A DNA stretch of 19,546 nt from Nitrospira japonica (GTDB taxonomy: Bacteria > Nitrospirota > Thermodesulfovibrionia > Thermodesulfovibrionales > SM23-35), in contig DYFC01000045.1 of assembly GCA_020725385.1 (NCBI GenBank), forward strand, positions 1-19,546, read 5' to 3'. A program made the position numbers and the translations under genes. The notes beneath the pieces are model-generated. The model searched no databases. It was not told where the DNA came from and saw only the letters and a program-made list of their open reading frames with translations. This document shows positions 12,294 through 19,546 of the stretch, piece after piece (the first letter of the stretch is position 1; each line of letters starts with the position of its first letter).

Positions 12294-12782
12294 TCATATT
12301 TCTGCTTCTATACTAAGTATCCGGTAATTCGATGGATTATTTTTTATCTTTTCTAACATTTTTTCGGAAACCCAATGAGAATCCTCTTCGAGATTATAGA
12401 AATAGGTATCTATTCCAAAAAAACCATCCATGAAATGTGTGATGACATGCAACATCTTGGTCTTGTATCCCTGAGGCAAAGCTATTATATCATCAAGACT
12501 TGAAATATTCTCTGATTTTATTTCCTCTGATAACTCGTAAATTATCTGACGGTTTTTTGAAATAGCTGCCTGTAACCTTTCATCAAAATTCCTATCTGTC
12601 GCAGAAATGGCAGAAGATTCGAGCATATTAATATTTGAATAACGGACAAGTTGATAGCGCTCAAAAAAAATCAAGACCCGTTTTTTTGCTGACTCAAAGT
12701 CAAAGCCTTTTACAAGAATCTCATGATAATATCTTGATTTTCCGAGATCGAGCTCTCTTGATAAAATATCATGTGTTTTCAT
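12294..12782 (-). CDS. Hypothetical protein
   Basis: 162-aa ORF filling the gap, with globular composition and a motif-like segment HFMDGFFGIDTYFYNLEEDSHW. No family recognised. Confidence 0.75.
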   Translation of the reverse strand: MKTHDILSRELDLGKSRYYHEILVKGFDFESAKKRVLIFFERYQLVRYSNINMLESSAISATDRNFDERLQAAISKNRQIIYELSEEIKSENISSLDDIIALPQGYKTKMLHVITHFMDGFFGIDTYFYNLEEDSHWVSEKMLEKIKNNPSNYRILSIEAEI

Positions 12783-12944
12783 TGTATTTAATATTTTATA
12801 TTAAATGTATTTGAAAAAGAAATTTTACTGCAACATCTGTGTTATTGTAACTGCATTTTCGGGGTTGAGCAATGTATGTATTTCGTATTAAAGATTTGGG
12901 ATATATGCGAAAAATTGTTTTATATTATGTTAATATGTATGACT

Positions 12945-13889
12945 ATGAACAAAATAAAACCTATTTCTTTGAATAAGGTTAAGACATTTTCGATCATGAA
13001 TAGAAGAAGTAAAGTTTCTCTAATATCACAGGCTTCTGTTTTCAATAAAGGGCAGACATTCAAAGTATTTATCGAAAAACTGCCCGATATTCTTGCTGCA
13101 AGGGATTTTAAATCTGTAGTAGATTCTATAGTTTTAGCCAGGAATAAGAATAAACATGTAGTTCTGGGCATGGGAGCGCATCCTATAAAAGTTGGCCTTT
13201 CCCCTTTAATTATTGATTTAATGCAAAAAAGAGTTATTACTGCTCTGGCAACAAACGGAGCATGTATAATTCATGACTTTGAGCTGTCTTTTATAGGAAG
13301 AACTTCCGAAGATGTTGCAAAAGAGATTTTATCTGGTTCATTCGGGATGGCTAAAGAAACAGGCGTTTATCTTAACAAAGCAATAAAAAAGGGCATTAAA
13401 TACGGTAAAGGCATAGGTGAATCAGTCGGTGAAATGATTTATAAAAGTAAATTCCGGTTCAAAGAACATAGTATTTTTGGTAATGCTTTTAATATGAACA
13501 TACCTGCAACGGTACATGTTGCAATTGGCACCGACATAATACATATGCATCCGGAAACCGATGGTCAGGCAATAGGCTCGGGAAGTTTTACAGACTTTAA
13601 AATACTCACTTCGGTTGTTTCTGACCTTGAAGGAGGCGTTTACATAAATCTCGGCTCTGCAGTAATTCTTCCTGAGGTTTTTCTAAAAGCTCTGACATTA
13701 GCAAGAAATCTCGGGCATAAGGTTGAAAATATAACAACAATTAATATGGATTTCATTCAACATTACAGACCATCTGTGAATGTGTTGCATAGACCTACAT
13801 TGAATAAAGGCAATTCATACGCATTAACAGGACATCATGAAATAATGTTCCCTCTTCTTGCTGCTGCTGTTATTGAAAGAATAGGTTGA
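12945..13889 (+). CDS. Conserved protein with a deoxyhypusine-synthase-like fold (start uncertain: 12939/12945 more likely than 12876)
   Basis: MGAHPIKVGLSPLIIDLM, ATNGACIIHDFE, TSEDV, FGMAKETG, HVAIGTDIIHMHP, NLGSAVILPEVFLK, GHHEIMFPLL. The layout resembles DHS-like NAD-binding proteins (inference). Confidence 0.65.
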   Translation: MNKIKPISLNKVKTFSIMNRRSKVSLISQASVFNKGQTFKVFIEKLPDILAARDFKSVVDSIVLARNKNKHVVLGMGAHPIKVGLSPLIIDLMQKRVITALATNGACIIHDFELSFIGRTSEDVAKEILSGSFGMAKETGVYLNKAIKKGIKYGKGIGESVGEMIYKSKFRFKEHSIFGNAFNMNIPATVHVAIGTDIIHMHPETDGQAIGSGSFTDFKILTSVVSDLEGGVYINLGSAVILPEVFLKALTLARNLGHKVENITTINMDFIQHYRPSVNVLHRPTLNKGNSYALTGHHEIMFPLLAAAVIERIG

Positions 13890-15990: not shown

Positions 15991-16233
15991 ATGGCACTCT
16001 TTAATAAAGAATTTATGCAGGCATGGGTTGTGGGACTGAACCTTGTAATTTCCACAGTTGTTGGACTTGCAATGGGAATAGGTCTTGATTATTTAATGGA
16101 AAAATGGTTTGGCTGGAATACAAGACCATGGTTAACTGTAATTTTCTTGATTTTCGGTATAATAGCTGGATTCAAAGATCTATATATGATGGCTAAAAAG
16201 CAGAATGATCAATCTAATAAAAAAAGTTCATAG
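15991..16233 (+). CDS. AtpZ/AtpI family small membrane protein (ATPase gene 1)
   Basis: GLNLVISTVVGLAMGIGLD...T.PWLTVIFLIFGIIAGFKDLY, the typical AtpZ pattern with two TM helices. Confidence 0.88.
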   Translation: MALFNKEFMQAWVVGLNLVISTVVGLAMGIGLDYLMEKWFGWNTRPWLTVIFLIFGIIAGFKDLYMMAKKQNDQSNKKSS

Positions 16234-16591
16234 ACAGGCATTGATTTTTCTGATTATATTTGCAGCAGTTTCAACATTTATTACTGCATTTGCTTCTCTT
16301 GGTGACTGGAGAAAAATGCCACACAGCGTATTGATTGGTGGGTTACTCGGGTTAGCGAATTTCAAAGGCCTCGCATGGGGGCTAAAAGATTTCGCTATCC
16401 AGCAAAGACCAACAGGAAAATTAATCTTCTGGAGCATGGTGAGATTCTTTATTCTTGCTGCTATACTGGTAGTGCTTGCATTGCTTAAGTTGATAAATTT
16501 TATCGGAATTTTAATTGGCTTAACTGTTGTTTTTGCATTAATAATAAAAGAAGGTTATCGGGAAGTTAAACAACAATCTGAAAAAATTTAA
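16205..16591 (+). CDS. ATP synthase subunit I-like membrane protein
   Basis: Four TM helices with SVLIGGLLGLANF and 'VRFFIL...INFIGILIGL'. Overlaps the atpZ-like gene. Confidence 0.78.
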   Translation: MINLIKKVHRQALIFLIIFAAVSTFITAFASLGDWRKMPHSVLIGGLLGLANFKGLAWGLKDFAIQQRPTGKLIFWSMVRFFILAAILVVLALLKLINFIGILIGLTVVFALIIKEGYREVKQQSEKI

Positions 16592-18015: not shown

Positions 18016-18705
18016 GTGAAGAATAAAAAACTGAAGAAAAAGGTTATGTGTTATTCCTCAATTGCTGCCGGCGCGCTTGCAATAGCAGGACAGGCAGAAG
18101 CAGCGGTTGTTTATAGCGGACCGCAGAATATTGTTGTAAATGCAAGTAATCCATTTGCAAGTATTGATCTTGATAATAATACTGTTCCTGATTTTGTTAT
18201 ATTTAATTATTATTATAATTATAATACTATAGCCCGAGCTCATATAATTTTTGGAAATCCATATAACAGTGCTTTTATGATTAATGAACAAGTTACTACA
18301 ACATCCCCTCCATTAATGGTTGTTAATATCCCTGCCAATTATACTGTTAAAAGTACTCTTGCAACAGGAAGACAATGGTTTTCTGTTGGTATTCTTGATG
18401 CTTATTATAAAGGTACCGGTTATGGTAATTTCTTAGGAACAACAGGTTATATTGGCGTGAGATTCAACGCGGCTTGTGGAACTGCTTATGGCTGGATACA
18501 ATATAGCTCTAATAATGATGCAACAGTTGGAACAATCATAGATTGGGCATATGAAAATACATGCCGGCCAATAAGAGCGGGTGATAAAGGTCAACAGGTT
18601 GCGGTACCTGCATTTACACCAGCAGGGATTGCAGTTGCAGCAGGTCTTCTATCAGGAGCAGGCTTAAGGGCGTTAAGGAAAAGGAAAAAAGAGGGGAAAA
18701 AATAA
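18016..18705 (+). CDS. Secreted/surface protein, paralog 1, with a C-terminal VPAFT-TM-basic sorting-like tail
   Basis: GTG start after GAGGAGG, signal peptide ending AEA|A, DLDNN..PDF loop, YIGVRF...YGWIQ...IIDWAYE...I.AG, and tail VAVPAFTPAGIAVAAGLLSGAGLRALRKRKK. Confidence 0.9.
   Translation: MKNKKLKKKVMCYSSIAAGALAIAGQAEAAVVYSGPQNIVVNASNPFASIDLDNNTVPDFVIFNYYYNYNTIARAHIIFGNPYNSAFMINEQVTTTSPPLMVVNIPANYTVKSTLATGRQWFSVGILDAYYKGTGYGNFLGTTGYIGVRFNAACGTAYGWIQYSSNNDATVGTIIDWAYENTCRPIRAGDKGQQVAVPAFTPAGIAVAAGLLSGAGLRALRKRKKEGKK
18034..18135 (+). repeat. 5' direct repeat, copy 1 (signal-peptide region); copy 2 at 18866-18967
   Basis: Manual alignment: 102 nt, 8 mismatches, no gaps. Confidence 0.9.
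18592..18690 (+). repeat. 3' direct repeat, copy 1 (sorting-tail region); copy 2 at 19448-19546
   Basis: Manual alignment: 99 nt, 4 mismatches, first 57 nt identical. Confidence 0.92.
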
Positions 18706-18784
18706 GGAACAGTTTTTCTCCTTCCCATGGCTTGTTATCCTTAACCTGCTGGTGATGTCACAACCTGATGATTGGGTACTTTAA

Positions 18785-18813
18785 TTGACAAATGATAAAT
18801 TTCCTTTTATACT
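18785..18813 (+). promoter_or_regulatory. Near-consensus sigma70 promoter for paralog 2
   Basis: TTGACA (18785-18790), 17 nt spacer, TATACT (18808-18813), 31 nt upstream of ATG 18845. GGGGGA SD. Confidence 0.8.
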
Positions 18814-18844
18814 TTCTTTTAATTTTTAAAAAATGGGGGAATTT

Positions 18845-19546
18845 ATGAATAAAAGTAAGGAGTTAAAGAAAAAGTTTATGTGTTATTCATCAATTGCTGC
18901 CGGAGCGCTTGCAATAGCAGGGCAGGCAGAAGCTGCGGTTGTTTATAGCGGGCTACAGAATATTGTTCATGACACAGCAAACACAATTCGGTGGATTGAT
19001 TTAAATAACGATGGGACAAATGACTTTGGTTTCCGTTATGTTTATACTACTACTTATTATGGTAATGTTAATAGAAGGTTCGATTTCGATTTAGTATATA
19101 ATAATTATTATAATCAACATATAGATAACAGTTTACATCAAGATCCTGCACGCTTACCGAGTGGATATTTGATACAGCCTAATCTTCCTAATCAACCGGC
19201 ATTTTATTGGGATTATGAAAATTATGACACTTTAGGTACATATTCTGGTAAAGCTAGTGAAGGTGTTTTTAGGGGTCAAAGTGGATATATAGGTGTTCGT
19301 TTTCAGAGTCAGACCTGTAATGGTTCAAATTATCATTATGGCTGGATACAGTTTAGTTTGAATAATAATGCCACTTCCGGGACTATAATAGACTGGGCAT
19401 ATGAGACAAATTGTAATCAATCTATAATGGCAGGTGATACTGGTCAACAACAGGTTGCGGTACCTGCATTTACACCAGCAGGGATTGCAGTTGCAGCAGG
19501 TCTTTTATCAGGAGCAGGCATAAGGGCATTGAGGAAAAGGAAAAAA
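18845..19546 (+). CDS. Secreted/surface protein, paralog 2; absent from the ORF track; stop codon lies beyond the window end
   Basis: Manual translation, open for 234 codons: MNKSKELKKKFMCYSSIAAGALAIAGQAEAAVVYSGLQNIV...IDLNNDGTNDF...GYIGVRFQSQTCNGSNYHYGWIQF...GTIIDWAYETNCNQSIMAGDTGQQQVAVPAFTPAGIAVAAGLLSGAGIRALRKRKK. Confidence 0.92.
   Translation, partial: MNKSKELKKKFMCYSSIAAGALAIAGQAEAAVVYSGLQNIVHDTANTIRWIDLNNDGTNDFGFRYVYTTTYYGNVNRRFDFDLVYNNYYNQHIDNSLHQDPARLPSGYLIQPNLPNQPAFYWDYENYDTLGTYSGKASEGVFRGQSGYIGVRFQSQTCNGSNYHYGWIQFSLNNNATSGTIIDWAYETNCNQSIMAGDTGQQQVAVPAFTPAGIAVAAGLLSGAGIRALRKRKK
18866..18967 (+). repeat. 5' direct repeat, copy 2
   Basis: Matches 18034-18135 at 94/102 nt. Confidence 0.9.
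19448..19546 (+). repeat. 3' direct repeat, copy 2 (runs to the window end)
   Basis: Matches 18592-18690 at 95/99 nt. Confidence 0.92.

Follow-up and report, generated by a model that had tools for sequence, protein, structure and literature searches.

A tryptophan-less tail likely derived from IPTL-CTERM, with exosortase H as its candidate reader, in a tandem protein family of Nitrospira japonica

Our subject is the C-terminal tail, with the motif VPAFTPAG, that is carried by two neighbouring paralogous genes at the end of a 19,546-base stretch of DNA from Nitrospira japonica. This stretch, called the window below, is the entire contig C43 (DYFC01000045.1) of a draft genome, G000, of 2.46 Mb (34.7% G+C, 71 contigs, 96.6% complete). 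We read the tail as a drifted IPTL-CTERM sorting signal on Sec-exported beta-sandwich proteins, which would be cut by the single exosortase H (XrtH) of this genome and would have been spread among the paralogs by gene conversion; the rough probability that we give to this account as a whole is 0.7. It is likely a genus-restricted, Trp-less derivative of IPTL-CTERM with XrtH as its reader. The homology of the tail, the presence and identity of XrtH, the co-occurrence of the two, the gene neighbourhood in relatives, the conservation of the motif and the mosaic history of the genes are established by the observations reported here.

The initial annotation, given for 18592..18705, had described the tails of both paralogs as a motif, a transmembrane helix and a basic cluster in the manner of exosortase substrates. 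Both tails were confirmed, the first at exactly these positions, a third copy was found on contig C53, and the design holds in the sequence and in the AlphaFold2 model of paralog 1, which has a helix at residues 202-227. The features of the genes and their tails are as follows.

18016..18705, + strand: paralog 1, a complete gene of 229 aa with a GTG start, encoding a putative signal peptide, a beta-rich body and the candidate sorting tail (open reading frame and translation).
18016..18102, + strand: signal-peptide-like N-terminus of paralog 1, residues 1-29 (MKNKKLKKK..AGQAEA), with a predicted cut before AVVYSG (from the sequence; cut site inferred).
18103..18585, + strand: body of paralog 1, a beta-sandwich-like domain (AlphaFold2 predicted local distance difference test score, pLDDT, of 93-99 over most of residues 30-190).
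18598..18627, + strand: signature motif V-A-V-P-A-F-T-P-A-G, residues 195-204 of paralog 1, which aligns in register with x-x-[VI]-P-T-L-x-x-W-G (alignments A1 and A4).
18628..18666, + strand: Gly/Ala-rich hydrophobic segment IAVAAGLLSGAGL of paralog 1, a predicted membrane helix (helix 202-227 in the model; TIGR04174 positions 6-27).
18667..18702, + strand: basic cluster RALRKRKKEGKK at the C-terminus of paralog 1 (sequence).
18833..19546, + strand: paralog 2, open at the contig end and cut inside the basic cluster (open reading frame).
19454..19483, + strand: signature motif VAVPAFTPAG of paralog 2 (sequence).
19484..19546, + strand: IAVAAGLLSGAGI, the hydrophobic segment of paralog 2, with its basic cluster RALRKRKK, where the contig end cuts the gene off (sequence).
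Contig C53, 95-835: paralog 3, the third copy with the same tail (VAVPAFTPAG, Gly/Ala-rich helix, RALRKRKK).

Paralog 1 ends in ...GQQVAVPAFTPAGIAVAAGLLSGAGLRALRKRKKEGKK followed by a stop codon, with the first Q of QQVAV at 18592 and 18705 as the last base of that codon, and the open end of paralog 2 reads ...QQQVAVPAFTPAGIAVAAGLLSGAGIRALRKRKK. By tblastn paralog 2 is 57% identical to paralog 1, and over 31 tail codons the two genes have three synonymous and one nonsynonymous codon differences. Motif, helix and basic cluster occur together only in the three paralogs among the 21,065 open reading frames (ORFs) of G000, taken from stop to stop with a length of at least 40 aa; the 16 further matches to PAFT in this set are bare strings outside any helix and basic architecture. 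The pattern thus exceeds what chance would give. In its layout paralog 1 agrees with an IPTL-CTERM protein: it opens with a putative signal peptide and closes, at its extreme C-terminus, with motif, helix and basic cluster. Its motif fits IPTLxxWG at positions 1, 2 and 8 and departs from it at Thr3, Leu4 and Trp7, and position 4 is Phe in the window paralogs and Leu in seven of the nine relatives.

Common descent with recognised IPTL-CTERM tails becomes apparent from shared alignment columns, from a sister protein with a recognised tail and from the ranking of the variant tails in a genome search. There are 63 homologues at E<=0.001, among them P0001 from the window itself and P0008, the copy on C53, and 47 of them form the family alignment A1. 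The remaining 16 (P0028, P0034, P0037, P0039-P0042, P0049, P0054-P0056, P0058 and P0060-P0063) were left out by eye for having no in-register tail, being a fragment or having another architecture. Within A1 nine proteins, 46-100% identical to paralog 1, carry the variant tail [VI]PA[LF]TPAG, 22 carry [VI]P[TSVA][LMV]xxWG and 16 a PEP-CTERM-like VPEP or VPAP. The motifs VPAFTPAG, VPTLxxWG and VPEP share alignment columns, so that the best alignment with IPTLxxWG, as first proposed, is borne out, and Pro198 is the sole invariant tail residue (47/47). P0006, which is 57% identical to paralog 1 and sister to its clade in a tree built from the bodies only (support 99/93), has the tail IPTLNQWG followed by LLALAALLSGAAIRALKK, a similar helix, and scores 29.2 bits on PF18203 against a cut-off of 20.8; P0011, P0013 and P0019 are likewise over this cut-off. 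A hidden Markov model (HMM) of 32 canonical tails, all of them from other organisms and chosen by a regular expression that requires WG, was run over the 21,065 ORFs. Ranks 1-4 were canonical-looking tails and ranks 5-7 the variant tails (E 0.013-0.072), followed by IPAYTGWG at rank 8 and by noise from E>3. Taken as sequence evidence, these results indicate that the variant tail is a derived state of IPTL-CTERM within one protein family and not a new class.

A comparison with the known systems points the same way. Like IPTL-CTERM, the variant lies at the extreme C-terminus, follows the motif, helix and basic cluster design, agrees with it, column for column, at motif positions 1-2 ([VI]-P) and 8 (Gly), is borne by homologues of the same family and co-occurs with exosortase H. 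Unlike it, the variant has Ala-Phe/Leu for Thr-Leu and Thr-Pro-Ala for x-x-Trp, scores below both curated cut-offs and is confined to a single protein family, within one genus and in a few metagenome proteins besides. The PEP-CTERM/exosortase A system (Haft et al. 2006, PMC1569441) is alike in its tripartite logic and its Gly/Ala/Leu-rich helix, and distant family members from Planctomycetota and Verrucomicrobiota have VPEP or VPAP in the same columns. However, the variant has no PEP motif, the PEP-CTERM models (TIGR02595/PF07589) are not among its NCBIfam or Pfam matches at E<=10, and searches of the genome gave no exosortase of the XrtA type.

The genes that carry the variant have a mosaic history. 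In the body-only tree the variant-tail proteins fall into two clades, with the paralog 1 group sister to P0006 and the paralog 2/3 group nested among other IPTLxxWG proteins, and an approximately unbiased (AU) test rejects a single clade of variant-tail bodies (log-likelihood difference 60.05, p 0.00014). Between paralogs 1 and 3 the identity is 76% over the signal peptide and 97% over the tail, but 37% over the body; between paralog 1 and P0006 it is 52% (signal peptide), 47% (tail) and 57% (body). At the DNA level the termini of the G000 paralogs are 83-92% identical and the middle 35-50%. Since two anciently diverged paralog lineages share the tail, we favour copying between tandem genes: the variant probably arose once in the genus and was carried to the second paralog lineage by gene conversion in the tandem array, and in the simplest account the signal peptide would have been homogenised together with the tail. 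Convergent origin of the tail in the two lineages, with no gene conversion, would agree with the two origins of the label that the body tree needs. Yet across lineages the G000 tails are distinct at no more than 2-4 of 31 codons, against a DNA identity of 35-50% in the bodies, and the signal peptides have been homogenised likewise, which is the pattern expected from copying between tandem genes. We consider convergence to be very improbable, the least probable of the alternatives weighed here.

The initial annotation had also stated that the window holds no exosortase and had placed the cognate sortase elsewhere in the genome. This agrees with our searches, as the only matches over cut-off lie on contig C19, where the single exosortase-family gene found in G000 scores 49.1 bits on PF09721 and 54.8 on TIGR04178 (52.9 for the protein itself); the only other TIGR04178 row in G000 has 13.3 bits at E 0.17. 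The 177-aa C19 protein passes the exosortase H model TIGR04177 by a thin margin (87.1 bits; cut-off 86), and the next model, XrtX, gives 68.7 against 170. Its residues C83, R124 and H146 are invariant in the seven-sequence alignment A3. A conserved Cys, Arg and His are the catalytic residues of exosortases and archaeosortases.

The gene directly 3' of the C19 XrtH encodes a protein with 29-38% identity to the XrtH-downstream proteins of six other genomes. These six and the partner in G209 all match NF041730 (XrtH-associated membrane protein; 7/7), three of them over its 35-bit cut-off and four at 22.5-32.1 bits. The G000 partner itself has no NF041730 match, and by its sequence it appears to be an orthologue of the matching proteins that is too divergent for the model. 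XrtH and a membrane protein of about 200 aa thus form a conserved two-gene module at all seven clear XrtH loci, which in G000 occupies C19:9161-10256 (L001:1441-2536). The G000 locus is like the known module in having XrtH followed by the putative NF041730 orthologue, and unlike it in the missing NF041730 match and in lying apart from the variant-tail genes, as it also does in G005, the second variant-tail genome of the genus.

Some XrtH proteins of the phylum are longer. In the Nitrospirota family f20 (G106, L077:1632-2672; G068, L078:1557-2600) XrtH has 346-347 aa with a hydrophobic C-terminal extension of about 160 aa. A fusion with the XrtH-associated protein was considered and found no support, as there is no NF041730 match at E<=0.01 and hhalign gives a probability of 0.7%.

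The pairing of XrtH with IPTL-type tails is supported by co-occurrence and by gene neighbourhood. The protein family is present in three of 41 related genomes, and all three have an XrtH match. Five of the 41 have XrtH over its cut-off and all five have IPTL-type tails (E<=0.05); conversely, an XrtH match is found in six of the seven genomes with IPTL-type tails, the exception being G003 (91% complete, 460 contigs). In a 201-genome sample of the phylum XrtH occurs in 6/7 genomes with a tail over cut-off vs 20/201 overall. Four f20 genomes with XrtH over cut-off have no TIGR04174 match, which speaks against a simple one-to-one pairing, and the substrates in these genomes may carry yet another tail. 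As to neighbourhood, G032 has a family gene (tail VPTLEQWG) directly followed by XrtH and then by the associated membrane protein, all on one strand. The same order on one strand is seen in G222 and G209, except that one large gene separates XrtH from the family member. The family members at the XrtH loci of these three other Nitrospirota genomes have canonical tails.

The large intervening protein of G222 and G209 (about 940-1008 aa; L075:1017-4040 and L076:2210-5029) ends in ...AVDP[SL]LKR[QH]. In G032 a similar C-terminus is encoded as well, two genes 5' of the family member (L003:2776-3681).

Several observations weigh against our reading and are best considered together. The variant tails are under the cut-offs of both curated IPTL-CTERM models. 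On TIGR04174 (IPTL_CTERM, cut-off 20.5) their scores span 8.4-18.2 bits, with 8.4 for paralog 1, 13.5 for paralog 2, 16.4 for the tail alone and 15.7-18.2 in the genome scan, where the 18.2 bits belong to the paralog 2 tail at 19475-19540; the match covers the helix and basic cluster only (profile positions 6-27). The window proteins have no PF18203 (IPTL-CTERM motif) match at E<=10, and the variant-tail protein P0010 reaches 11.0 bits. Ala replaces the Trp of the WG pair that all 32 collected canonical tails have, although this count is circular given the WG-requiring expression by which they were chosen. The TIGR04177 score of the C19 enzyme is barely above the cut-off, and the pairing of XrtH with IPTLxxWG is taken from the names of curated models and products. 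The XrtH proteins of G000 and G005 have four private positions in common while other pairs have 1-10; there being no excess of private residues, nothing points to adaptation of XrtH to the variant tail, and this idea was dropped. Variant-tail genes and XrtH are on different contigs in both genomes, and XrtH lies within 4 kb at only one of 52 family loci from species genomes, located by a search with the 16 closer family sequences. Such rare linkage fits a system of many substrates to one enzyme, but it gives the variant no local support. Finally, the AU test was made after the tree had been inspected, though its groups were set by tail type beforehand.

The low scores could be taken to mean that VPA[FL]TPAG is a separate sorting class read by a dedicated enzyme other than XrtH. 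By the refuting condition set at the outset, a strong match to an IPTL-CTERM or PEP-CTERM model, the tail does not count as a member of any recognised class, and no curated CTERM model reaches its cut-off. Its helix is also rich in Gly and Ala, whereas the five canonical-looking tails of G000 (IPTMTEWG, IPAYTGWG, VPALNEWG, VPAMSEWG and IPTITEWG, two of them on LamG/ConA-like domains) have helices rich in Ile and Phe. However, these five miss the cut-offs equally (15.6-19.9 bits on TIGR04174; 13.0-17.8 bits or no match on PF18203), so scoring below cut-off is a trait of the whole AT-rich lineage and not the mark of a separate class. The variant tail is found on one protein family only: a tail-only search of the longer proteins of 5.8 billion clusters gave five matches, 5/5 of this family, and an exhaustive phmmer search of 1.84 billion representatives gave a single match, P0010, of the same family. 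It is in register and homologous with the IPTLxxWG tails of that family, whose helices are also Gly/Ala-rich. In G000, moreover, searches found no second exosortase, no sortase and no rhombosortase, and the lone CPBP protease adjoins a different, Cys-containing tail. A dedicated enzyme is thus highly unlikely in our view, if a little less so than convergence. Of the initial proposal of a lineage-specific signal with its sortase elsewhere, the sortase was located in the form of the C19 XrtH, while the separate class gave way to an apparent IPTL-CTERM derivative in one protein family.

Two side observations concern these searches. The Cys-containing tail belongs to a 767-aa S8 peptidase (C29:114999-117692) whose C-terminus consists of a run of Gly followed by a Cys, a hydrophobic helix and KRRTN, and directly behind it, in convergent orientation, lies the CPBP/Rce1-like intramembrane protease (PF02517, 81.4 bits); the pair resembles the combination, described in the Haft 2023 preprint, of a sorting tail that contains Cys and an enzyme of myxosortase type. 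The tail was also checked as an LPXTG anchor, with 16.1 bits for the tail alone on TIGR01167 (cut-off 15.9). This candidate was rejected: the match is confined to profile positions 13-33, where the helix and basic cluster lie, an LPXTG motif is missing, PF00746 gives 7.1-11.7 bits against 20, and no PF04203 sortase is found in the genome. The TIGR01167 match of the tail (18583-18702 of the window) is a possible source of a false 'LPXTG' annotation in a diderm organism.

Another reading is a decayed signal, in which the loss of Thr-Leu and of Trp ended recognition and left the tail as a plain inner-membrane anchor that holds the protein at the periplasmic face. The hallmark residues are indeed gone, the curated models match the helix and basic part only, the variant genes are unlinked to XrtH in G000 and G005, and XrtH has no sign of co-adaptation. 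A plain anchor, however, needs no fixed motif, yet V-A-x-P-A-x-T-P-A-G is invariant in 9/9 variant-tail proteins down to an identity of 47%. In alignment A4 this concerns V195, A196, P198, A199, T201, P202, A203 and G204, at an overall identity of 47-76%. Between G000 and G005 the 31 tail codons have 11-12 synonymous and eight nonsynonymous differences, and the motif has been kept through these synonymous changes: the nine-residue core has four of them, and its only replacements are V/I and F/L. This core, invariant in nine proteins and kept across synonymous changes, bears the signature of purifying selection on a motif for which a plain membrane anchor would have no use. In addition, the invariant Pro of the superfamily is retained, and both variant genomes keep XrtH and canonical substrates. 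We regard decay as unlikely, while giving it more weight than any other alternative.

The spread of the variant is narrow. A survey of the genus found it in two of six genomes (G000 and G005), and among the 52 loci from species genomes it occurs only at the G005 locus. A second, independent Trp-less tail of the family, VPTLNQSG, was seen at L019 in a 'Deltaproteobacteria' metagenome-assembled genome.

Returning to the drifted IPTL-CTERM signal, the following mechanism can be proposed. The three tandem genes would give small beta-sandwich proteins exported by Sec, and the Gly/Ala-rich helix and basic cluster would retain the exported protein in the inner membrane. XrtH, encoded on C19 with its associated membrane protein, may then recognise the Pro-centred motif at the membrane surface and remove the tail, upon which the mature protein could be released or re-attached towards the cell surface. 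In the variant the invariant Pro and also Gly are retained, whereas TLx has become A[FL]T and x-W has become P-A. Two of these steps, namely that XrtH cuts the tail and where the mature protein ends up, are inferred by analogy with what the Haft 2023 preprint reports for XrtA, XrtB and ArtA. Experimental work on XrtH or IPTL-CTERM is almost absent from the literature that we searched, where we met one mention of IPTL-CTERM based on InterPro, for an S-layer protein annotated with this tail in a passage of PMC8671808.

A further possibility is that the Trp-less tail is a distinct sub-signal, handled by XrtH differently from canonical tails through slower cleavage, retention or another attachment. 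Selection would then have fixed the tail, and gene conversion would have spread tail and signal peptide as a cassette among fast-diverging surface proteins. We hold this combination to be doubtful, somewhat below the decayed signal and above the dedicated enzyme.

The rest of the protein gives less to go on. Both window paralogs open with the signal-peptide-like stretch KKK..SSIAAGALAIAGQAEA|AVVYSG, and an A-x-A followed by [AV]-x-YSG is conserved around the putative N-terminal cut in the 47-protein alignment. The AlphaFold2 model of paralog 1 has a mean pLDDT of 85.6, with an N-terminal helix 4-22 of low pLDDT. No Pfam or NCBIfam family covers the paralog body over cut-off, and Foldseek against the PDB gave nothing for the fold of paralog 1 at E<=0.001. 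The top seven rows from VIA-align are HmuY-like proteins with Z 6.0-7.2, a range that is common for this tool, and the ESM Atlas matches are only 'hypothetical protein' clusters (best score 0.91). The same body appears from the sequences to be joined to several kinds of C-terminal ending. P0028, P0034, P0039 and P0040 keep the body (GTIIDWAYED) and end in ...FNWNLFLPAI..GNK, with neither helix nor basic cluster, and P0062 has a type IX secretion system C-terminal domain (PF18962, precomputed) as its ending instead.

With regard to the gene array, contig C53 opens on a stop codon, and the spacer after it is the one that is also found 3' of paralog 1. For this reason the array is taken to continue into C53: the contig break probably falls in the repeated tail, and the three genes would form one tandem array running from C43 to C53. 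The public contigs of four DNA runs did not settle this join, being short and ending at the repeated tails; record 12 of X2 covers 18592-18873 with no differences and may derive from the sample of origin. In G005 there are four fragments of the family (L006, L008, L009 and L004; three N-termini and one C-terminus), all of them at contig ends, and here too a multi-copy family with homogenised termini breaks the assembly. None of the 16 sequencing runs listed for the locus is an RNA run. One further feature lies between the two genes of the window.

18785..18813, + strand: promoter-like site TTGACA-17-TATACT in the spacer 5' of paralog 2, the best sigma-70-like site of the region with 11/12 matches (a consensus match only).

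By eye, the same hexamers can be read on C53, 5' of paralog 3. Housekeeping genes fill most of the window, namely SurA-like, NUDIX, MiaA, MutL, ProA-like, NadD, LapB-like, LeuS, LptE, HolA, S20, AsnS and Pgi. Since LptE, LapB and SurA are encoded, these genes indicate a diderm cell with lipopolysaccharide. Amid them the ORFs 12294-12782 (-), 12876-13889 (+) and 16205-16591 (+) have no Pfam match at E<=1e-5.

All candidate XrtH substrates of G000, the five canonical-looking and the three variant ones, score below cut-off, as does the XrtH partner, and automatic annotation therefore leaves the system almost invisible in this lineage. The variant tail may be viewed as a natural experiment on what an IPTL-type signal needs, in which Pro and Gly persist while Thr-Leu and even Trp would be replaceable, with the motif still under purifying selection. 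The homogenised termini around a diverged body also make a clean and small case in which targeting signals evolve in concert across a tandem family of exported proteins. Because the XrtH system has almost no experimental literature, a tractable set of candidate substrates such as this one would be useful.

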